This document shows positions 16,861 to 28,054 of a stretch of 29,779 nucleotides of DNA, piece after piece. The first letter of the stretch is position 1; every line of letters starts with the position of its first letter. The notes under the pieces were generated by a model, which was given only the letters and a program-made list of their open reading frames with translations, was not told the origin of the DNA and made no database searches. Origin of the DNA: a virus; the UHGV virus genome UHGV-1366609; one strand, given 5' to 3'. The position numbers and the translations under genes are program-made.

Positions 16861-16886
16861 GCCCGCATAAAGCGGGCTTTTTTATT
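16861..16886 (+). terminator. Rho-independent terminator, probably bidirectional, between convergent ogr-like and methyltransferase genes
   Basis: GCCCGC-ATAAA-GCGGGC hairpin followed by TTTTTTATT, 5 nt after the ogr-like stop. Confidence 0.7.
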
Positions 16887-17601
16887 CGACATCACAAAGC
16901 GCGGTCATGATCGCCAGCCGTTCCGCTGGCGGCAAGGCGGCGAACTTATCCCGCCAGCGTGCCGCTTTACGTTTTATCCTGGCCCGGTCGTTGTAGTCCT
17001 TTCCGGCAAAGGTGTGGGAATAGGCTTTCCCTTCCTCGTAATTCATCCAGATTTTTTCCGTTCGCACGCCGCCCCGCGTCATGGCCTGAAACTCTCGCGT
17101 TCGCCAGCCGGTCAGCGTGCTGTCATAAAGCTGCGACGGGTAGCCAGACAAAATGACACTCACATTTTCCGGCAGTGACATCAGGCAACGTAAAAGGCGC
17201 TCATGATCGGCGACGGTGTATTCATGGCGGTAACGGGCGTGACTGGTGCGCGTTTCCGGCATATATGGCGGATCACAATAAATCAGCACCTTACCCAGCT
17301 TTTCAAAAGACGTAACCCCATCCAGCACGCTAGGCCTTTTGAGACTTTCAAGAAAATACACGGCATCACCATGAAAAAAATCAATGCGTGGTGGCTTCAA
17401 TCCCTTAACCTCCCAACGCTGCATTGTTTGCCGACGTGCTGTTTCATCAAGATCCGCACCGTAATTCCGCTTCGCAGGCGGCTTGAAAAACATCACCGCA
17501 CCGCTGCCCAGATGCGTTTCAATGTAGGTATCATGCGGGGGCATTTCAGCAATGATTTTCTGATAGACCCCGCTGGCCGCTTTACTTCCCAGATAACTCA
17601 T
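16882..17601 (-). CDS. N6-adenine DNA methyltransferase (phage-type Dam-like), orphan
   Basis: 239 aa. HLGSGAV (AdoMet-binding, motif I-like) and LIYCDPPY (motif IV DPPY). No adjacent nuclease-like gene. Confidence 0.6.
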   Translation of the reverse strand: MSYLGSKAASGVYQKIIAEMPPHDTYIETHLGSGAVMFFKPPAKRNYGADLDETARRQTMQRWEVKGLKPPRIDFFHGDAVYFLESLKRPSVLDGVTSFEKLGKVLIYCDPPYMPETRTSHARYRHEYTVADHERLLRCLMSLPENVSVILSGYPSQLYDSTLTGWRTREFQAMTRGGVRTEKIWMNYEEGKAYSHTFAGKDYNDRARIKRKAARWRDKFAALPPAERLAIMTALCDVE

Positions 17602-17817: not shown

Positions 17818-20427
17818 TCATTCTTTTGGGTGGCGACCTTCCGCACCCGCCAGCATTTTTTGATACTCCCCGACCGGATCAAACCGCAGGCGCGTGGCAT
17901 CTATACCGTGGTTATCCCGCAGACGTTCCCATAATTTATTCATCGTCCGTGACTCGTCGGGTAATTGACGCGTTATTAACTGGCCGTCAGCACTGGCCCG
18001 ATAAACTTTGCCGCCAATCTCCAGACAGCTCCCCATTAACAGCGAAACGGCCTGAATCTCTGAAATCTCAACCGAACACAACACCGCATCAGCCAGCAGA
18101 CTGGCAACCGCAGGGGCAAGCGCTGCCCGTCTGGCTTTTTCTGCCGCTGATCTGGCCTCGGTTTTTTCGACGGCAGAACGCCACGCGACATCTAATTCGC
18201 TTCCTGGCTCATAAGGTGATCCGCTTTTCTGCCTTTTGAATGGTGTTTCACGTAGTCGCCGCATCAATTTGCGCCGCGTCTGCTGGTCCATGTTTTCAAA
18301 ATCGACGATTTCCTCTTCTGATTCTTCTGTCATCCCCTCCACATCAGGCGAAAAATCGGTGATTTTTTCGTCTTCCGTAGAGTTATTGACAGAACTCCAA
18401 GCGTCGCCGGTTGGCGACGGCAAAAGGTCAACCCCCAAACCGGGGCCTTTTTTGGCCCCGGTGGCGGCTTTGGATTTGGCGCGGATTTTCCACTTAACCA
18501 GGCGGGTGCAAATACGGGAGGCATCCCCCAGACGCGGCGACCAGACCCCGAATACCTTTTCGGGGATCTCACAATAAGCATTCATTTCATCAGCAGGCTG
18601 ATAGGCCAGACGAACGACATAGTTTTCACGCGGGATCAAAACACCGCCCTGGCGGATGATGTAGGTAGCAAAGCACCCAACATCGGCAGCAGCGCAAACC
18701 GCATCCATCGCAGGATCCATAAGCAGCGGTGCGCCGCGCTTGAAGGTATTGTCAATTTTCTGGCGGGCCGTGATCTGATTGCTCAGTTTGCGCAGCTCGC
18801 GGTAAACCGATATAGGCGGTTGTCCGATGGGCTGAAACTGGCGGATACGGTGAAGCGATGCCCAAGCCATTGCAAACTTGGCTGTTTCATTCAGGGGCTT
18901 GCCGCTTTCGTCGTCCAGTTCACCGGCCAGCGCGTGGCCGTCGATATTCTTTGAAATGTATTTGGCTATGTATGCCGTTGCTGACCCTTTTCGCGGGTCC
19001 ATTTTTTTTGACTTGAAGCGAGCGCCGGTATTGCGGCCCAGCTCGTCGCGGTCTTCCGCAATGAAGTAAGCGCGAAGGATCGCAACCGTGGCTTTAACTT
19101 GCTCCTTTGGCATAAACAGCAATGCGTGCCAGTGTGGCGTCCCATCGTGATGCGGCTCGGCGACGCGGAAGCCATAAGGGCGCAAATCTTCGCGTTTCAG
19201 TTTGGCGGTTGCCCGGTTCCATACACGGCATAAATAGCGCTGCGCCTGGGCGACGGTGGAATGATTCCATTTGGCGTTATGGTGGCCGGACGCAATATTA
19301 CTGTGATATTTCGACGGGCAAGTAATGGTCAGGAAGATGCCAACATCGCCGCGACTTTGGGCGACAAGTTCAACCCCAGCCATTCGGGCCATAAGCTCAT
19401 GGCGACGAATAGCCGGGTTAGACGTGGATTTATTAATCATTTCCTCGAGCGACGAAACGTTGCCGTCTTCGTCTACCAGTTCATGACTTTTGAAAAAATC
19501 CCGGTTTTTACGGCGCTGTTCCTGCCACTCGATCAGGCTGGAAGCGCTAACGTAGGCGTGCGCTTTTTTATTTACCGCGCCAACAGCACGCAGCTGGTTC
19601 TCGCGCCAGTCACAACGCAGGCGCCAGATTTTGCGCCCCCACCAGTCAGGCGAAGCCATACGCAAAATGGCCGTGCATATGCGCTCGCGTTCCCACGGCG
19701 CATACCATGCAGGCGGCACAATACGAAGCGCCAGCATTTCGCGGCCCAGGTGGCAATAAAGCCAGTCCAGTTCTTCGACGTTCATGTCGGAAACATTCCG
19801 CCCCAGGGCTTCGCATTCCGTCCCAAGCATTTCAGCCATGCGGCTGGCGATCTCATTAGCGGCGCTTAGTGCCTCCCGCTTTGTGAAATCAGCCAGTCGT
19901 TGCCAGCGCCCGAACCAGTACGCGGCCAGTTCGCCGGTGAGATCAGGCGAAACACCTTGCCTTGTGCGCACAACATCAAGACGCAGCAATGATTTTTTCA
20001 CGGTCCCCATAAGAAAATCATTGGTGTGTCTGGCTTCACGGTTGGCCCGTAACCATTCAATTTTTTTGCGCCAGACTTCACGAATGAAGAACGGCTCTGA
20101 TAATAAACGCGCTTCGACACCTTCCGGCGTATTGGCCCAGGCTGCCGCCGTAGCTTTGGCGGCTTCCATTTCCTGCCGGATTATATTTTGATGGGCGGCC
20201 AGTGGCAGGCCGCACGGTTCGTACCTGTCCAGCGCCTGGATAAGCGCGTTACGGTCGCGAACATCGTCGGGGTTGTAACCGGCGCGTTTGAAGATGTGAT
20301 CGATGTGTTTTTTAACGGCAGGATGATGCGCCACCGCCCCGGCAAGCGGGGCGATTTTTTTCGGTTCGTAGGTGTAAAGGCCAACAGCTGGGCGCGGCGC
20401 GTTCCAGGGCCATGCGAAATCAGTCAT
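17818..20427 (-). CDS. A: Rolling-circle replication initiator, P2 gpA-like
   Basis: About 869 aa from ATG 20427..20425 (the track ORF begins at an upstream TTG). HUH motif TPHWHALLF and paired tyrosines YIAKY (Y-x3-Y), as in P2 A. Confidence 0.85.
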   Translation of the reverse strand: MTDFAWPWNAPRPAVGLYTYEPKKIAPLAGAVAHHPAVKKHIDHIFKRAGYNPDDVRDRNALIQALDRYEPCGLPLAAHQNIIRQEMEAAKATAAAWANTPEGVEARLLSEPFFIREVWRKKIEWLRANREARHTNDFLMGTVKKSLLRLDVVRTRQGVSPDLTGELAAYWFGRWQRLADFTKREALSAANEIASRMAEMLGTECEALGRNVSDMNVEELDWLYCHLGREMLALRIVPPAWYAPWERERICTAILRMASPDWWGRKIWRLRCDWRENQLRAVGAVNKKAHAYVSASSLIEWQEQRRKNRDFFKSHELVDEDGNVSSLEEMINKSTSNPAIRRHELMARMAGVELVAQSRGDVGIFLTITCPSKYHSNIASGHHNAKWNHSTVAQAQRYLCRVWNRATAKLKREDLRPYGFRVAEPHHDGTPHWHALLFMPKEQVKATVAILRAYFIAEDRDELGRNTGARFKSKKMDPRKGSATAYIAKYISKNIDGHALAGELDDESGKPLNETAKFAMAWASLHRIRQFQPIGQPPISVYRELRKLSNQITARQKIDNTFKRGAPLLMDPAMDAVCAAADVGCFATYIIRQGGVLIPRENYVVRLAYQPADEMNAYCEIPEKVFGVWSPRLGDASRICTRLVKWKIRAKSKAATGAKKGPGLGVDLLPSPTGDAWSSVNNSTEDEKITDFSPDVEGMTEESEEEIVDFENMDQQTRRKLMRRLRETPFKRQKSGSPYEPGSELDVAWRSAVEKTEARSAAEKARRAALAPAVASLLADAVLCSVEISEIQAVSLLMGSCLEIGGKVYRASADGQLITRQLPDESRTMNKLWERLRDNHGIDATRLRFDPVGEYQKMLAGAEGRHPKE

Positions 20428-20435
20428 GGCGGCCC

Positions 20436-20702
20436 TCAAAACGGCAATTCATCGTCAGTGCAATCTGGATCAATGGCGAGCGTAACCGGGCTACCGCACT
20501 TAAAACTTAGCGCCTCTGAGAAGGTGGAAAAAGCAGCGGTATCGCGAACACAAACGCCGTCATAAAAAGCGTCGAACTCAACCAACCAGATGTCACCCAT
20601 TTGCCAACGGTCATGGATACGCTCAACGACCATCATCGCGGTGACATCTCCGTCCGTAGTGGCCGGATCAAAGCCGATGAATTCCCTTGCGGTCAGGCTC
20701 AT
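20436..20702 (-). CDS. Small highly acidic early protein with SSB-tip-like C-terminus (function unknown)
   Basis: 88 aa, about 17 Asp/Glu versus 5 Arg/Lys; C-terminus ...DPDCTDDELPF confirmed codon by codon. Its stop sits 8 nt before the A start. Confidence 0.5.
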   Translation of the reverse strand: MSLTAREFIGFDPATTDGDVTAMMVVERIHDRWQMGDIWLVEFDAFYDGVCVRDTAAFSTFSEALSFKCGSPVTLAIDPDCTDDELPF

Positions 20703-20926
20703 TTTTTACACTCCACGTTATATTTTTCATGCGTCATCAGTGACCAGACCTTGCCGTCGTTTTTACTCAGCAAGCGCCAGCGCCTACCGATGCGGATCAC
20801 AAGGTAAAAATTGGGTTTGATGCGGGAATAGTTTTTTAGGCCGCGAGAAAAGCGGCGCAGCTCGGCAGCTGCGTGACCGCAGACACCTACCGGCGCAGCG
20901 CATGAGATCTGCAGTTTGCTGACCAT
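20699..20926 (-). CDS. Small basic hypothetical protein
   Basis: 75 aa, Arg/Lys-rich; start overlaps the upstream stop (TGATG). No motif recognised. Confidence 0.4.
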   Translation of the reverse strand: MVSKLQISCAAPVGVCGHAAAELRRFSRGLKNYSRIKPNFYLVIRIGRRWRLLSKNDGKVWSLMTHEKYNVECKK

Positions 20927-21381
20927 CAGAAAGGTACTCCGCCGTCAAAATCACCGACTGGCGACGTCTTGAATGTAAAAGCCGTTCCTGGGCGAAATTT
21001 GCGGGCGTTCTTGAATGATCGAAAAGTGCGCGAGTGCGGGAAGCTATCCCCCGTCATGACATCCATTGCGATTACATCAACCCGAACGGAACCACGCTCC
21101 CGGCGAGTGATAGAGATAACCTTCTCAACTACTGCAAAAACAGAGGTGTCGTGAGGGGCATAAGGTGCGACCGGCGAGACTTGTTGCACTGCCGGACTAT
21201 GTTTCTCAATTAGTGGATCAAGTATCGCGTTAAAGGAAATTAGCAATGTATTAGCCACGTCAGGCCCAGCCAAAACGCCCGCTAACGTCGCATGGGCAAG
21301 CGCAATGGTTTTAGCTTCGTTAAGCGCAGCCAGCACTCCGCGTGTAAATTCGGATTGAGTTGCATCGATACGGGTTGCCAT
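20926..21381 (-). CDS. Hypothetical early protein ending in an SSB-tip-like tail
   Basis: 151 aa; C-terminus ...SPVGDFDGGVPF confirmed from the nucleotides. Coupled to the Dam stop upstream and the 75-aa start downstream. Confidence 0.5.
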   Translation of the reverse strand: MATRIDATQSEFTRGVLAALNEAKTIALAHATLAGVLAGPDVANTLLISFNAILDPLIEKHSPAVQQVSPVAPYAPHDTSVFAVVEKVISITRRERGSVRVDVIAMDVMTGDSFPHSRTFRSFKNARKFRPGTAFTFKTSPVGDFDGGVPF

Positions 21382-22346
21382 TAAAAAGCCTCCACGCCAT
21401 TGGCCGCAGCCGATGCCAGCATTTCGTTGTAGGTCGCGTCCCCCATTACCGGGCCGCAGTCAGGACAACAGCCACCACCGGCACGACCGCAGCCGCTGCA
21501 CACTTTGAGGACGCCGATCACCTCTTTGGCCTTTTCGCGGTTTTTAGTGCTGGCGCTTACCGAACGCTGGACGGCAATTTCCTGGAAGCGGAAGTCTTTG
21601 TAGATCTCGCGAGTCAGCGGGGTGTCGCTGTTAGAAATCACGACAGACGCGCCAGTCTCTCGGTTTGCTTTCAGAAGGGCGGCAACAAGCTGGCGGTGTT
21701 GCTTCTTACCAAATGGGCCAGTGTGGTACTGGGTAAAATTGGCGGTGTCACTTGCAGGCAGGTACGGCGGATCACAGTAAATAACGCTATCAGGGAAAAG
21801 AGGGGCGTTGATGGCGTCTACGAAGTCACTACAAAGAAATAAAGTGCAGGTATCGCGGGCCTTTTCAGAGAACAAGCGGATCTCCACTTCTGGCAAATAC
21901 TGCGTTTCTTTATCCTTCCCCTTTCCGTAAGGGGTGTTGTACTCACCTTTCAGGTTGTAGCGCACAACACCGTTGTAGCCGTGGCGGTTCAGGTACAAAA
22001 AGAACGCGGCGCGGGCGACACTAGTAAAATGGTGGCGCAGGCGGCGACCTTTCGGATGATTGAACATGTCGCGAAGTTTTGCGTAATTTGCGCTGGTATT
22101 GCGGTTCTTAAACAAGTCGCGAGACAGGCTTATCAGTTCGTCAGGGGTGCTTCTGGCAACACGATAAAGGTTAATCAAATCGGGGTTTATATCGCTCAGA
22201 ATGTAGCGACGATAATCTGTATTCAGGAAGACGGAAGCGCCCCCCACAAACGGCTCAACCAGGCATTCACCTTTCGGCAGAATCGGCAGTAATTCAGGCA
22301 TAACGCGGCCTTTACCACCGGGCCATTTAACGAGAGATCGAATCAT
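21381..22346 (-). CDS. dam: Dam-family DNA adenine methyltransferase (likely GATC-specific) with C-terminal Cys-rich extension
   Basis: N-terminus VKWPGGK...LPKGECLVEPFVGGASVFLNTDYRRYILSDINPDLINLY is near-collinear with E. coli Dam as I recall it; motif IV VIYCDPPY. Extra C-terminal CSGCGRAGGGCCPDCG. Confidence 0.85.
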   Translation of the reverse strand: MIRSLVKWPGGKGRVMPELLPILPKGECLVEPFVGGASVFLNTDYRRYILSDINPDLINLYRVARSTPDELISLSRDLFKNRNTSANYAKLRDMFNHPKGRRLRHHFTSVARAAFFLYLNRHGYNGVVRYNLKGEYNTPYGKGKDKETQYLPEVEIRLFSEKARDTCTLFLCSDFVDAINAPLFPDSVIYCDPPYLPASDTANFTQYHTGPFGKKQHRQLVAALLKANRETGASVVISNSDTPLTREIYKDFRFQEIAVQRSVSASTKNREKAKEVIGVLKVCSGCGRAGGGCCPDCGPVMGDATYNEMLASAAANGVEAF

Positions 22347-22416: not shown

Positions 22417-22812
22417 TTAATTGACTGCGTTATCTGGCGCGGGTGGTTTGTCGCGTATCGCCTGAATTTCGGCGCGTGGTGCGGCGTAGTCCTCAAATTC
22501 CCACGGCATTGATGCTGCAAATTCGGAAAGGCGCTTAATGCCCATCAAAAGGCACGTTTGTTCCTTTTCGGTTAGATTTTCGTAAGTGCAACCCAACTGT
22601 TTGGCGGTCAGCTTCGGCATTCCGGCTATGTATCTGGACGCATCGTTTGCCAGGATGAAAATCACCTTTTTGCAGGCATCATCCAGGCGGTTAAAACGAG
22701 TTGCAGTATCGTTCACGCGTGAGGCGTTCAAACTGGCTTGCAGCCGCGCCCGTTGCTCTAAGAACTGGCGGCGGCCTGGCTGTTGTCCTGTTTTATCCAT
22801 CAACATAACCAC
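22417..22812 (-). CDS. Hypothetical early protein (position of P2 B / orf80-83 block)
   Basis: 131 aa ORF in the early leftward operon; no motif recognised. Confidence 0.4.
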   Translation of the reverse strand: MVMLMDKTGQQPGRRQFLEQRARLQASLNASRVNDTATRFNRLDDACKKVIFILANDASRYIAGMPKLTAKQLGCTYENLTEKEQTCLLMGIKRLSEFAASMPWEFEDYAAPRAEIQAIRDKPPAPDNAVN

Positions 22813-22822
22813 CTCGCCCGAG

Positions 22823-23065
22823 CTACGCGAAGATGCCCATTAAGCGGGAAAACCAGCGGCGCTTGTTACGCGGGCGTGACATAAACGGTAAACGGCAGTT
22901 TTTAACAAATTGAACATCTGCCGCTTTAGGCTGGAAGAAACGCCCGTCCGGGGTTTCAATCCAGCCGCGTTGATGCTGACGGTGGGTGATCTGCTGGCCG
23001 TGGGTGAGCAGGCTGGCGAGTGATGGGCATTGTGATAAATCCATAATAAGCCTCGCTACTATCAA
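22823..23065 (-). CDS. Hypothetical small early protein
   Basis: 80 aa ORF, ATGA-coupled to the upstream Cox-position gene. Confidence 0.35.
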   Translation of the reverse strand: MIVARLIMDLSQCPSLASLLTHGQQITHRQHQRGWIETPDGRFFQPKAADVQFVKNCRLPFMSRPRNKRRWFSRLMGIFA

Positions 23066-23529
23066 GCTGTACGTGAAACAGAAAGAGGATTGTGTTGGGT
23101 GCGCTTATGCGTCTGGTGATTGTTACCAGTTACGCGGCGATATGTTTTCTTGTCGCGCATCAGACGATCGATGTAGTGCTTTTCTTCTGGGGTAATAAGT
23201 GCGCGGCAGTGTGCTACGGCGGCCCAGTATTCTTGCAGCATGATGAAACGCTTAGGACGTTTTGAACCCGGCATCCCTTCGCGGTGGACTGGTACTTGAG
23301 CACGATCCATCAGGTTGCGAACTGACTTAAGGGTCCGGCCTGTCAGGTAGGCAAATTCAACAGGTGTAACGAAAATCTGCTTTTGCAGTTCTTCGGTGTT
23401 CATATCGCGAATAGCGTTAGCTTGCGAATCAGTCATTTTGCAGATGCGTGCTATACGGGCGTTATCTAACGGGAACTGGCGAAAATGTGGAGATCCCGCC
23501 GTTAAATTAATTTCTCGATTTTGTGTCAT
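23062..23529 (-). CDS. Early regulatory protein in the Cox/Apl position, putative DNA-binding
   Basis: First gene of the leftward early operon, divergent from the C repressor. Segment FVTPVEFAYLTGRTLKSVRNLMDRAQVPV looks like an excisionase/Cox-type helix-turn-helix; at 155 aa it is longer than P2 Cox, so the start or identity is uncertain. Confidence 0.4.
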   Translation of the reverse strand: MTQNREINLTAGSPHFRQFPLDNARIARICKMTDSQANAIRDMNTEELQKQIFVTPVEFAYLTGRTLKSVRNLMDRAQVPVHREGMPGSKRPKRFIMLQEYWAAVAHCRALITPEEKHYIDRLMRDKKTYRRVTGNNHQTHKRTQHNPLSVSRTA

Positions 23530-23586: not shown

Positions 23587-23652
23587 TGGGGCACATCGGG
23601 CAAATGTTGTCTATGTGCTAATTTCTGGTGATTGTGATGAGATCTTATCATT

Positions 23653-23952
23653 ATGTCAATGACGCAAGGCGAAAAACTAGCTCTTATTCGCGACTCTGAA
23701 CGCTTAACTAAAAGGCAAATGTCTGATTTAACAGGTTTAAATTATTCAAGTTATGGCGGTTATGAGCGAGATAAAACAAAAATGACACTTGAAGCAGCTG
23801 TATGTGTTTTCGGACACCCTCGTTTTCATAAGTATCAAGACTGGTTTATGTATGACCGTACGGACGAAAGCCGGGGGCAAATAGCACCGGCTCTCGCGCA
23901 CAATGGGCCATACAAAATGCAGTCAGACCCCTCAGAGAAACAGACTGGTTAA
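23653..23952 (+). CDS. C: Immunity repressor, P2 C-like
   Basis: 99 aa. MSMTQGEKLALIRDSERLTKRQMSDLTG and the C-terminal GQIAPALAH closely parallel P2 C as I recall it, including identical length. Confidence 0.85.
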   Translation: MSMTQGEKLALIRDSERLTKRQMSDLTGLNYSSYGGYERDKTKMTLEAAVCVFGHPRFHKYQDWFMYDRTDESRGQIAPALAHNGPYKMQSDPSEKQTG

Positions 23953-25310: not shown

Positions 25311-25820
25311 ATGGCAATGACAAAATGTAAAGAGTGCAAAAAAGAGGTATCAGCAAAGGCTAAGACTTGCCCTCATTGTGGAGTAAAGGATCCTGGCTTT
25401 AGCGCCAAAGATGCAATGGGTGGTTTTGTTTTTCTGTTAATCCTTGGGGCAATTGGGTACTGGTATTTCAGTGGTGATGAAGAGGCAACGGCCAAAGATG
25501 AGCCAAAAGTTAAGGTGTGTGCTAAGAATGATGGGCAGTGTATTTTTGAAGCCCATTTAGTTGATGCTTTGGTAGCCTGTAAAAGCCCGATTGAGAAAAC
25601 TTCAAAGTATGATTTCGAATGGACCAATGGTGCATTTGAAAATATCTTTAGTCGGTACATCAACAAACCGGAACAGAACCAGATTGTTTATGTGGGCGAT
25701 AAGCTGAAATTTACGAATGGGTTTAACGCCAAAGTGAACATGACGTATTCATGCACCCTTGACACAAAAACAAACAAAATGATCGATTATGAAGTGACTA
25801 AAGGGCGCTTGCCCGATTGA
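25311..25820 (+). CDS. AT-rich cargo (moron) gene: zinc-ribbon, single transmembrane helix, Cys-containing C-terminal domain; function unknown
   Basis: 169 aa. CKEC-x10-CPHC ribbon, hydrophobic GGFVFLLILGAIGYWYF, then about 115 aa with four Cys. Own AAGGAG 9 nt upstream of the ATG; composition visibly AT-richer than neighbouring phage genes. Confidence 0.6.
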   Translation: MAMTKCKECKKEVSAKAKTCPHCGVKDPGFSAKDAMGGFVFLLILGAIGYWYFSGDEEATAKDEPKVKVCAKNDGQCIFEAHLVDALVACKSPIEKTSKYDFEWTNGAFENIFSRYINKPEQNQIVYVGDKLKFTNGFNAKVNMTYSCTLDTKTNKMIDYEVTKGRLPD

Positions 25821-26329: not shown

Positions 26330-28054
26330 TCAGGCTATCAGGGGACCGTATTTGCTTTTTAATGTGCCGGTTTTAGTGGCCGTTGCGGTGAACTGTGCAG
26401 CCTGCCCGCTGGCCCCTGTATTGGGGTGAGTATGTGACGCGGCAGTCTCTGCCAGCTCCCTCACCACGTCCAGGGTGTCGGTGAGTAGTGTCAGGACGTT
26501 AATCTCTTCGCTTCCCAGTTTTACCACCGGGGCAATCAGTTGTTGCGCCTGGGCCACACTTCGGCGGATGCCGCTGATTTTTTCAGTCAGTGCGCCGCTG
26601 ACGTTTGACGTAACATTCCCTTTCACGTCGTCTGTAACATCGCCCGCGACGTCCCGTTTTACGTTCCGGCCAACACTGACGGAATTGTCCTTGCTGCAGG
26701 TTACTGTCAGGTTGCCGGATGTGCCGATACTGTAATCACCCTCGCTGATATGGACCACCGCCCCGGCCAGAAGTGTGGCCGTGCCAAGCACGGTTGTTTT
26801 ATCCGTTGCCTGGACCGTAGTTTCACGGACAACCACTTTGCGGATCTCTTCGTCGGTGGTGACTTCGCGCATCATGGAGTTTTCGCGGATTGTCTGGTCC
26901 GTCTGGCGTTCCCAGTCTCCGGCAACCGTCACGCGCTGCGATACACCATCGCGCTGTTGCTGCAACTGCTCGCCGGGTTTAACCGCTGGCAGGTTATGAC
27001 CCTCCGCCATAATCTGGCGCACAAAGGGCTTATCCTGCCGCCCCTCAGTGAACCCAATTTCAACCAGCGTGCCAGGGGGCGGAAACTGGAACATTCCCGA
27101 CTCGCTGCCCGCCATTGGCACAGGTAGCGGAACGGCAGAATAAACCGGCGTATTTGCGGCTGGCTTGCCGTCTTCGTCAAGCAGCTGGAGATCCACGGCG
27201 TAGCGCGGGCGGAATGGATCGGCAATATCCCCCCCGGAAACATCCTCGCTTGGTGCTTCCACCCTGGCGAACTTTGGAAGATGCAGGCCGCTTGCCAGCT
27301 CCGGGAATGCGTTTTCAATCTGCCGCTGAATTGGTGATTTTTGCAATGGCTGGCCGTTGGCTTTGTTGCGGGGCTGCCATGTGATTGCCATGTCGTCGTT
27401 ATTTAGCCGAACCTGGTTCAGCCGCTGGCCGTTCACTTCCGCACCCGGTCGCAGGCTCTGAATCATTGGCACAACCATTGAATTTCCGCCTGCCGATTCC
27501 TGGCTAAATTCATGCGGGATCTCCACTGGTTTACCCGCAAAAAGACTGTGCTCCGCAGCGCCGACGAAGACATCCCCGTCCGGCAGCTGATACCAAAGAT
27601 AATCCGTCACTGAAAATGCACGGCCCAGACTGGCAAGAAGCTGATAGCCCGTGCCGCTGTGCGTAAAGTGGGGGATTGGTTTATCTGCATAAGCAGCGCC
27701 GACCGGCGTTGTGACGGTAAGCCCGCTTTGCTCACTTATCCAGTCAGTAATCTGGCGCAGCGTTGGATGCTGGAAAGAACACGGCCACAATTTGTCAAAG
27801 ATGCCAACCAGCTCACGCACGAATAATCGGCATGTTCCATTATCAGCAGGCTGTGACCGTTCAACGTACCCGGTAAACCAGCGCAGGACCAGACCATCAT
27901 AGCCAACATCGATCCGCACCATCTTGCCGGTGTAATCTGTCTCTGTCCCTGCCGTAATAAACCCCCGACCGCACGCGTTCAGCTCCAGCACGATATTGCA
28001 GTCAATCAGATGGACCGGATCAGAGGAAAGGTACAGGCGTTTAATTGGTTTCAT
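26330..28054 (-). CDS. Baseplate central hub/spike protein (gpV/gp5-like OB-fold and His-rich apex fused to a long N-terminal domain)
   Basis: 574 aa. MFQFPPPGTLVEIGFTEGRQDKPFV resembles the gpV/gp5 OB-fold core; C-terminal ASHTHPNTGASG resembles the HxH spike-apex motif of P2 gpV. The first about 330 aa are hub-sized. Confidence 0.55.
   Translation of the reverse strand: MKPIKRLYLSSDPVHLIDCNIVLELNACGRGFITAGTETDYTGKMVRIDVGYDGLVLRWFTGYVERSQPADNGTCRLFVRELVGIFDKLWPCSFQHPTLRQITDWISEQSGLTVTTPVGAAYADKPIPHFTHSGTGYQLLASLGRAFSVTDYLWYQLPDGDVFVGAAEHSLFAGKPVEIPHEFSQESAGGNSMVVPMIQSLRPGAEVNGQRLNQVRLNNDDMAITWQPRNKANGQPLQKSPIQRQIENAFPELASGLHLPKFARVEAPSEDVSGGDIADPFRPRYAVDLQLLDEDGKPAANTPVYSAVPLPVPMAGSESGMFQFPPPGTLVEIGFTEGRQDKPFVRQIMAEGHNLPAVKPGEQLQQQRDGVSQRVTVAGDWERQTDQTIRENSMMREVTTDEEIRKVVVRETTVQATDKTTVLGTATLLAGAVVHISEGDYSIGTSGNLTVTCSKDNSVSVGRNVKRDVAGDVTDDVKGNVTSNVSGALTEKISGIRRSVAQAQQLIAPVVKLGSEEINVLTLLTDTLDVVRELAETAASHTHPNTGASGQAAQFTATATKTGTLKSKYGPLIA

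Follow-up and report, generated by a model that had tools for sequence, protein, structure and literature searches.

Introduction

Host Dam methylase is limiting for high-copy DNA, and the Dam enzymes encoded by phages act in anti-restriction and can also trip retron-Sen2 (preprint 10.1101/2020.06.22.160242). Orphan Dams of phages are thus a well-known class. Here we analyse one of them, the product of a gene at 21381..22346 (-) of the UHGV virus genome UHGV-1366609, a stretch of 29,779 nucleotides that is referred to throughout as the window. The window Dam is an ordinary orphan Dam of a P2-like prophage, a type already annotated in many records, and the enzyme itself adds little to what has been described. 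What is new is a four-cysteine module in its C-terminal tail, found in tens of thousands of enterobacterial prophage protein sequences: a portable and apparently undescribed element that is common to prophage Dams, RecE, DnaQ-like exonucleases and small prophage proteins. With this, the focus moves from the regulation of Dam to the binding target of a portable module.

Two further described systems bear on this locus. RecE has an N-terminal domain whose role is unknown, and the full-length protein improves linear-linear recombination; the account that reports this mentions neither zinc nor cysteines (PMC11611040). A 2025 survey of the Rec modules of lambdoid phages covers DnaQ-like nucleases and nuclease-less "RecE-2" proteins, the shuffling of partner-interaction domains being beyond its scope (PMC12315714). 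For SSB, a passage of one account presents the last nine residues as the SSB-Ct interaction element (PMC7913777).

Results

The C-terminal tail is a conserved protein element

The tail of the window Dam consists of its last 40 residues and is made up of a 26-residue four-cysteine mini-domain (the Cys4 module; residues 281-306, KVCSGCGRAGGGCCPDCGPVMGDATY; 21429..21506 (-)), a short predicted helix, and an acidic tip of variable sequence, usually with a terminal phenylalanine (helix and tip together residues 307-321, NEMLASAAANGVEAF; 21384..21428 (-)). The first segment was delimited by invariant alignment columns and by matches to RecE and to PHROG exonuclease families, and the second by AlphaFold2 (AF2) modelling and by the C-termini of homologues. 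The mini-domain of the window Dam reads C283-x2-C286-G ... C294-P-D-C297-G-x-V-M-G-D-A-T-Y, that is, two knuckles of the form CxxCG and CPxCG, and the consensus of the module core is C-x2-C-G-x2-GGG-x-C-P-D-C-G-x-V-M-G-D-A-T-Y-x-E-M.

An earlier note on this DNA, made by a model from the letters alone, had described about 30 extra C-terminal residues containing a cysteine cluster. The extension holds up, with 40 residues following the block that aligns with Escherichia coli Dam compared with nine in the E. coli enzyme. The cluster, CSGCGRAGGGCCPDCG, is indeed present at residues 283-298, although only four of its five cysteines are conserved: in an alignment of 62 sequences C283, C286, C294 and C297 are invariant, whereas the position of C293 is occupied by C, R, L, Y, H, M or N among homologues. 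Residues G290-G292, P295, D296, G298, P299 and G302 are likewise invariant or nearly so. The majority residue has a frequency of 0.81 over residues 281-306, which is the level of the catalytic motifs, compared with 0.69 for the whole core, in an alignment that was chosen from tail-bearing sequences. Synonymous codons alternate at the invariant Cys, Gly, Pro and Asp residues (TGT/TGC 6:8; GGN, CCN and GAT/GAC likewise), and because they do so freely, it is the protein that is under selection and not an underlying DNA element. A conserved DNA element beneath the tail was accordingly rejected, since third codon positions vary without constraint.

The Dam of Salmonella phage SI7 (327 aa) has the C-terminal end VCSGCGRAGGGRCPDCGPVMGNATYNEMLATAAAYGVEPF; a megablast comparison with the window detects similarity only in the first 185 nt of dam, yet the tail is kept. 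A CxxC...CxxC tail is found in 102 of the 120 best Dam homologues, which come from Citrobacter, Salmonella, Serratia, Pectobacterium, Dickeya, Enterobacter, Klebsiella, Erwinia, Yersinia, Pantoea and other genera. The earlier note had held that an artefact should be absent from related phages, and this distribution bears directly on the view that the extension is a functionless error of annotation or sequence, created by a frameshift or by read-through of a lost stop. Such a view would account for the decay or fusion seen at the joint in some homologues, for the frameshifted gene at one locus (L039) and for several Dams with unrelated tails. However, it is refuted by the conservation of the tail, in the same frame and with the same motif in SI7 and about 100 of these 120 homologues from many genera, and by synonymous codon variation at invariant residues, and we give it practically no credence. 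The tail is genuine, conserved and under selection at the level of the protein and, among Dams, it is found only on those of prophages.

This last point was established by a survey of 80 genome loci, each representing a species, in which a locus was counted as P2-like when a gpA homologue lay within 5.5 kb with Dam upstream of gpA (n=62) and as host-type when no gpA was nearby (n=18). The Cys4 module occurs in 19 of the 62 Dams in P2 context and in none of the 18 host-type Dams, all of which have no tail or a very short one. Of the remaining P2-like loci, five encode another Cys-rich tail, ten a tail of another kind, and 28 no tail or a very short one. The module is thus an optional accessory that has been repeatedly lost or replaced.

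Among the replacements is a longer Cys-rich tail with about ten cysteines, VCDGCGRYEGGHCAKCCPGIAACEEGWSFDCRGNCDICEPSDNPETW; other prophage Dams end in GIVEGCPAGGCGHC...ERFVDEDAF, or continue as CAGYS...DVLPGYWESEENPIPL after the second knuckle (these alternatives were taken from L009:7001-8005, L052:7001-7993 and proteins P0055, P0059 and P0087). Modular variation has a hotspot at the 3' end of dam.

The module is shared with RecE and other prophage proteins

Residues 279-310 of the window Dam match the PHROGs family phrog_20376 ("exonuclease"; E 1.6e-11), residues 267-312 match phrog_2082, and residues 281-311 align with positions 526-556 of the NCBIfam exodeoxyribonuclease VIII model (NF007259; E 2.8e-7). 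In Rac RecE itself (E. coli K-12 b1350, translated) the corresponding cysteines are residues 517, 520, 528 and 531, within the N-terminal region upstream of the nuclease domain (564-866), and RecE residues 515-546 align without gaps to residues 281-312 of the window Dam, with 18 of 32 positions identical. A recent transfer of DNA between recE and dam was rejected on account of this limited identity. The window Dam is not itself a RecE protein: only residues 281-311 match the RecE model (29 bits, cutoff 1269), and a Pfam scan of the protein gave no match to PF06630 or PDDEXK.

A profile of the module (41 positions, 36 Dam tails) was then searched against 1.84 billion representative proteins at E ≤ 1e-3. 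The 34 matches are proteins of 65-991 aa, and the other domains found in them are the Exonuc_VIII N-terminal domain, a Rv2179c-like 3'-5' exonuclease and PDDEXK. Three of them (P0126, 823 aa; P0127; P0129) combine the RecE N-terminal domain PF06630 with a DnaQ/Rv2179c-like 3'-5' exonuclease and the module; the cluster represented by P0126 comprises 23,183 sequences, and in E. coli these bear the names "exonuclease" or "3'-5' exoribonuclease". P0131 joins the PF06630 domain to a PD-(D/E)XK nuclease, an architecture that P0142 and P0143 share as judged by eye, without a domain scan. The module also occurs in PF06630 proteins that have no nuclease (P0137, P0139, P0134) and at the C-terminus of unrelated small proteins of 79-190 aa (P0122, P0123, P0125, P0128, P0132, P0140, P0145). 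Across these contexts 35 sequences can be aligned without gaps to the pattern [KR]-[VI]-C-x-[GA]-C-G-x-x-G-G-G-x-C-P-D-C-G-[PA]-V-M-G-[DN]-[AS]-T-Y-x-x-M, and the equivalents of C283/C286 and C294/C297 are invariant in the Dam tails, the RecE-type copies and the small-protein copies alike.

A tblastn search of a phage collection with the tail recovered Dam genes only, in alignments limited to query residues 20-42; loss of the Cys/Gly-rich half is attributed to the BLAST low-complexity filter. No Pfam model covers the module in the 36 Dam tails and the module-bearing proteins that were scanned, a profile search of the Protein Data Bank (PDB) returned no solved structure that contains it, and no description of it was found in the searchable literature, including searches with the text of the motif. 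In the Rac prophage recE adjoins racC, followed by ydaE, which is annotated as a 'zinc-binding protein' (L003:7839-8001).

Nature of the module

The invariance of the four cysteines strongly suggests that the module binds metal, and the 'zinc knuckle' named in the earlier note is a reasonable structural guess for the paired CxxCG and CPxCG knuckles. In the AF2 model of the full-length protein a helix is predicted at residues 303-315, and when the tail was modelled alone this helix appeared again, together with a beta-bridge in the first knuckle. A DnaJ-type CxxCxGxG finger was rejected because its register is off by one residue.

The best match in the PDB profile search was the TFIIB zinc ribbon, at an E of 0.17 and below threshold, the likeness being to its second knuckle (CPECGLVVGD). 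Weak and not significant as it is, this match would agree with a tail that is a nucleic-acid-binding zinc knuckle and adds affinity for DNA, single-stranded DNA or DNA ends, for example to promote the processivity of Dam or to target it to replication intermediates. The zinc ribbons of primases and of topoisomerase I bind DNA, and every large protein with the module works on DNA (Dam, RecE-type and DnaQ-type nucleases). However, the module is neutral to acidic, with a net charge that averages -1 for the core and -3 for the 41-residue stretch including its flank, and that is -8 in RecE, and with fewer than two basic residues per copy of the core. Moreover, conservation falls on Gly, Pro, Asp, Thr, Tyr and Met, and not on Lys, Arg or surface aromatics, and the segments that come after the module are acidic linkers or tips. 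We therefore regard a DNA-binding knuckle as unlikely and, because the module is acidic, favour protein docking over DNA binding.

The position of the module within Dam raises another alternative, in which the tail acts within its own polypeptide and without an external partner, as a metal-dependent or redox-sensitive cap with a part in the stability, dimerisation or switching of the methylase; the copies elsewhere would then mean that a small, stable fold has been used again in other proteins. Structural and redox roles are classic for Cys4 sites, and in the window Dam the first knuckle begins three residues after the last core beta-strand (residues 272-280), in the part of the tail that is modelled with the highest confidence (predicted local distance difference test, pLDDT, of 87 for residues 281-290). 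By contrast, RecE-type proteins have the module on its own between long disordered linkers, and the small proteins have it at a terminus, so that there is no one common fold for it to cap; many closely related Dams also do without it. A purely intramolecular role appears to us doubtful, and decidedly so.

The RecE-type proteins carry the module between long low-complexity linkers, followed by an acidic stretch. Docking is favoured because there the module resembles a bead between such linkers, and because it is joined to domains that are catalytically unrelated as well as to small proteins. It is probably neither a DNA-binding finger nor a regulator specific to Dam. On balance we lean towards the interpretation that the gene encodes an intact phage Dam that methylates GATC and bears a portable protein-docking tail stabilised by metal.

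Several observations weigh against this interpretation. The AF2 models of the tail are only moderately confident, with successive ten-residue blocks at a pLDDT of 87, 69, 62 and 72 in the full-length protein and a mean of 72 for the tail alone. Foldseek returned no structural neighbour for the tail-alone model, and no Pfam zinc-finger match rose above threshold in the 36 tails, the best being Zn_Ribbon_TF at E 0.007-0.16. The knuckles are separated by a Gly-rich spacer of seven residues (GRAGGGx), and the spacing in zinc ribbons and rubredoxins is longer, at roughly 12-30 residues. In Dam the module directly follows the last beta-strand with no linker, and it could simply stabilise the fold. 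Three of the positions that we take to contact GATC in E. coli Dam are changed (L122 to V127, R137 to K142 and Y138 to G143), next to a three-residue insertion. Finally, 28 of the 62 prophage Dams have no tail at all; one of these is the 296-aa Dam of a prophage of E. coli 2011C-4251 (L002:5295-6185), which ends ...EVIGILKVATSTGICE with the Cys4 module cleanly absent, although the DNA of this prophage shares 94.5% identity with the window over fil, o131 and the initial ~185 nt of dam. Because many related prophage Dams do without a tail, the module is dispensable for basic function, which fits an accessory targeting role and weakens any claim of necessity.

The catalytic core is an intact Dam-family methyltransferase

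The gene at 21381..22346 (-) is a complete open reading frame (ORF) of 321 codons plus stop, beginning with ATG, preceded by GGAG at ~9 nt and ending with TAA, and its translation matches both PF02086 and TIGR00571. The methyltransferase core occupies residues 1-280 (21507..22346 (-)), as delimited by PF02086 (the D12-class N6-adenine methyltransferases; residues 8-262, E 3.5e-58, 197.7 bits, cutoff 22), by the alignment with E. coli Dam and by Foldseek. Using phmmer, residues 3-281 align with residues 5-269 of E. coli Dam (2g1p; E 6e-68), with 124 identities in 264 aligned pairs (47%). The near-collinearity with host Dam that the earlier note had claimed is evident, as the motifs quoted there are all in place: KWPGGK at residues 7-12, LPKGECLVEPFVGGASVFLNTD at residues 23-44 and YCDPPY at residues 190-195. 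The second of these contains the S-adenosylmethionine motif EPFVGG (residues 31-36). Motif I (E31-P-F-V-G-G-A-S) and catalytic motif IV (D192-P-P-Y195; codons GAT CCG CCG TAC, read directly at 21762..21773 (-)) stand in the alpha-class order and are invariant in the 62 homologues. The AF2 model of the whole protein (mean pLDDT 79) finds E. coli Dam as its best Foldseek match (TMt 0.84-0.87 over ~282 aligned columns), followed by DpnM and T4 Dam. The window gene thus encodes an intact DNA adenine methyltransferase of the Dam family (D12, alpha class).

GATC is the likely target. The residues of E. coli Dam that contact GATC are K9, Y119, N120, L122, R124, P134, R137 and Y138; in the phmmer alignment five of the eight are kept, as K7, Y124, N125, R129 and P139 of the window Dam, and the other three are replaced, by V127, K142 and G143. 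The hairpin that contacts DNA corresponds to residues 119-131, LNRHGYNGVVRYN.

The term "Dam orthologue", used in the earlier note, is too strong. The protein passes the model of the Dam subfamily (TIGR00571; 250.3 bits, cutoff 114.85) and falls short of the NCBIfam equivalog of host Dam (NF008152; 266 bits, cutoff 441). Since it scores below this cutoff, and since its gene is part of a P2-like early operon, upstream of gpA, it does not qualify as an orthologue of the housekeeping Dam in the NCBI sense, and "Dam-family paralogue" is more exact.

The methylase lies in a P2-like early operon without a cognate nuclease

The window is an essentially complete genome of a P2-like phage (Peduoviridae), related most closely to Salmonella phages SI7, SW3 and SW5; a 9-kb probe shows 93.6% identity over about half of its length. 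A sigma-70-like promoter, TTGACA-17-CACAAT, is predicted by consensus match only at the head of the leftward early operon (23631..23659 (-)); it faces the C-repressor gene (23653..23952 (+)) and its position corresponds to Pe of P2. Downstream of this site follow o155 (23062..23529 (-)), with no family assignment, Fil (22823..23065 (-); PF10893) and o131 (22417..22812 (-); phrog_7428), of unknown function, and then Dam. The ATG of the next gene, o151 (20926..21381 (-)), overlaps the stop codon of dam (TAATG). It is followed by o75 (20699..20926 (-)), a 75-aa protein with a ParE-like toxin domain (PF24732, E 2.8e-18; phrog_1525), and by the small early gene o88 (20436..20702 (-)), which lies just upstream of gpA (17818..20439 (-); PF05840, E 2.7e-107; phrog_91). 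The latter encodes the replication initiator, an HUH nickase, and marks both the end of the early operon and the P2-like context. The placement of Dam in the early operon by the earlier note, which had also found no restriction enzyme nearby, is in keeping with this arrangement.

Searches of Pfam, PHROGs, NCBIfam and PADLOC gave no nuclease or defence-model match among o155, Fil, o131, o151, o75 and o88, and the best PADLOC match of the window Dam is the 'orphan methyltransferase' model (PDLC03729, E 6.6e-88), in line with the orphan status that had been proposed for it. These results bear on the possibility that the methylase is the modification half of a phage-borne restriction-modification system, or of another defence system. 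PADLOC models of Type II methyltransferases also match the protein (E 2e-79), and an ORF with a ParE-like toxin domain lies two genes downstream. However, it is the orphan model that matches best, the neighbours are devoid of nuclease and defence matches, and they vary among related phages while Dam stays. A Type II restriction-modification system is largely refuted, there being no adjacent cognate endonuclease among the flanking ORFs, and a defence system of any kind is very improbable. Either avoidance or enrichment of GATC in the phage was also rejected, as the window contains 124 GATC sites where 115-137 are expected, which is an ordinary density.

The interval between Dam and gpA behaves as a slot for variable cargo. 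It holds o151, the ParE-like ORF and o88 in the window (20436..21381), a DNA cytosine methyltransferase in SI7 (L001:4099-5022), and nothing in the E. coli 2011C-4251 prophage, where Dam overlaps gpA. No antitoxin is recognisable next to the ParE-like o75, between o151 and o88, and homologues of o75 are found directly upstream of Dam in several other prophages (L010, L023, L024, L035, L036). Downstream of gpA a second, short D12-like methyltransferase ORF of 239 aa is found (16882..17601 (-)), in which the matches to models of the Dam family (PF02086, 27 bits; PADLOC MTase_II PDLC03244, E 2.4e-25) are confined to residues ~103-195, the half with DPPY, and to a short stretch at the N-terminus. 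A 'DNA methylase' is annotated at this position in SI7, and the enzyme could be compact or degenerate. Beyond the integrase gene are a 169-aa protein with an N-terminal zinc ribbon (CKECKK...CPHCG) and sub-threshold Pfam matches (25311..25820 (+)), and a 574-aa ORF that has no match in Pfam or PADLOC and a counterpart of the same size at that place in SI7 (26330..28054 (-)). This ORF could be moron or defence cargo.

Acidic phenylalanine-ending tips recall the C-terminus of SSB

The tip segment that follows the module (residues 307-321) varies between homologues and usually shows an acidic residue followed by [A/P/G]F. Among the C-termini of 120 Dam homologues, 64 end in F and 52 in [DE][APGVI][FL]; common tips are FDDLEAF, FDGAEGF, CETQEPF and EENPIPL. 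The C-terminus of E. coli SSB is PMDFDDDIPF, to which the tip of the window Dam, NGVEAF, is a weak match. Three of the four window genes between o131 and gpA end in this way, namely Dam, o151 (...GDFDGGVPF) and o88 (...TDDELPF), the ParE-like o75 being the one that does not, and none of the other 33 listed window products ends in phenylalanine. Pfam, PHROGs and NCBIfam assign neither o151 nor o88 to a family. In its C-terminal half o151 is paralogous to the o88 family, with 33% identity to the homologues at L013/L014; across this family, in which overall identity is 33-78%, a [DE][DE][DE]LPF tip is kept. Within the 5 kb upstream of gpA, ORFs with an [AP]F ending are enriched, at 21 of 625 compared with 7 of 800 (Fisher p ~0.001), a comparison that is descriptive only, given crude ORF calls and loci that are not independent. 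P2 itself has no SSB-like tips.

Similar ends are seen elsewhere. In other P2-like prophages, DGG[LVI]PF closes three unrelated proteins of the early operon, and the tips ...DFDGGLPF, ...FDDGVPF and ...SDGGIPF were recorded in such prophages, the protein with the last of these looking ASCH-like and similar to P2 Orf91. A Serratia Dam whose tail lacks cysteines ends in ...AFDDGMPF (these proteins and the preceding ones were taken from L053:1682-2170, L054:7840-8040, L068:4608-5264 and L025:7001-7927). The tip gives the impression of a portable C-terminal peptide. In o88 the N-terminus (FIGFDPATTDG) carries a motif, [FW]-x-G-[FV]-D-[PL]-A-x-G, that also lies within or at the end of some Dam tails (MFLGFDPAKGCETQEPF, AVWFGVDLAKGAEVF; P0085, L019, L020, L041, L066). 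Recombination or fusion between the 3' end of dam and the next gene is suggested by such sequences and may explain part of the tip pattern.

Discussion

In the mechanism that we propose, the catalytic core, which is encoded in the early lytic operon of a P2-like temperate phage without a cognate nuclease, would deposit N6-methyladenine at GATC on the rapidly replicating phage DNA during lytic replication. Host Dam would be limiting for this DNA, and methylation by the phage enzyme would protect the phage from restriction enzymes that cut unmethylated GATC and from MutH. A role in phage-specific methylation timing, which the earlier note had named as another possibility, is conjectural. The four cysteines of the tail would hold a single metal ion, zinc or possibly iron, and thereby fold the mini-domain, which would dock different DNA-transaction enzymes of phages onto one shared partner, most likely a host protein located at replicating or recombining DNA. 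The presence of the module in a methylase, in exonucleases of two kinds and in several small proteins of early operons points to one partner for all of them, and a host partner is more economical than a phage partner because the module is confined to enterobacterial prophages of two unrelated types, P2-like and lambdoid.

Once identified, this partner would reveal the means by which temperate phages bring DNA-modifying enzymes to replicating DNA. RecE is a workhorse of recombineering, and the module provides a testable handle on its unexplained N-terminal region; it could also explain why direct cloning works better with full-length than with truncated RecE.

A more specific version of this proposal, which we offer as a tentative and rather improbable idea, is that the Cys4 mini-domain and the acidic Phe tip together form a docking device that plugs early enzymes of phages into a hub of host genome maintenance. 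Candidates for the hub would be the pockets that receive the C-terminus of SSB (chi/HolC, PriA, RecQ, ExoI and others) or another component of the replisome. If this were true, methylation by Dam and end-processing by RecE/DnaQ-like enzymes would be physically coupled to replicating phage DNA, as a counterpart of the coupling of DNMT1 to PCNA; the module would account for the contribution of the RecE N-terminal region to linear-linear recombination; and the hub would also be used by o151, by o88 and by no fewer than three unrelated proteins from the early operons of other P2-like prophages.

Comparison with known systems

The window Dam resembles E. coli Dam (2g1p, 4rtj) in its predicted fold and in the order of its motifs (KW.GGK, EPFVG.GS, the NR.GYNG..RYN hairpin and DPPY). 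Unlike the E. coli enzyme, it is borne by a phage within an early lytic operon, has insertions at residues ~100-107 and 144-146, and carries the 40-residue Cys4 tail. Its nearest counterparts are the Dams of SI7, SW3 and SW5 (Irrigatiovirus, QEI25461.1), which have the same tail and the same position between the Fil-region genes and gpA. It differs from SI7 Dam in its middle part, a helical insert (residues ~62-112) that has diverged, and the two phages also differ downstream, where SI7 has a Dcm methylase in place of o151, the ParE-like ORF and o88. The Dams of P2-like prophages are annotated as 'Dam family site-specific DNA-(adenine-N6)-methyltransferase', the tail being annotated in none of these records.

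As in the knuckles of rubredoxins and zinc ribbons, the module has two CxxC pairs, with Gly after the second Cys and Pro after the third. It is set apart from both by the seven-residue spacer in the window Dam tail, by the absence of any family model at threshold and by the lack of a structural neighbour. The acidic run and terminal [A/P]F of many Dam tails, o151 and o88 recall the C-terminal tip of SSB and the acidic, Phe-terminated tails of T7 gp2.5 and gp4, a likeness at the level of sequence only, which may be convergent or a by-product of gene fusions at the dam joint and to which the tip of the window Dam conforms weakly.

Rac RecE (b1350) and the prophage proteins of the RecE family share the Cys4 module with the window Dam and have nothing else in common with it. 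In RecE, which possesses an Exonuc_VIII N-terminal domain and a PD-(D/E)XK nuclease, the module is internal and lies between disordered linkers, whereas in the window Dam the same element is joined directly to the end of a methyltransferase.

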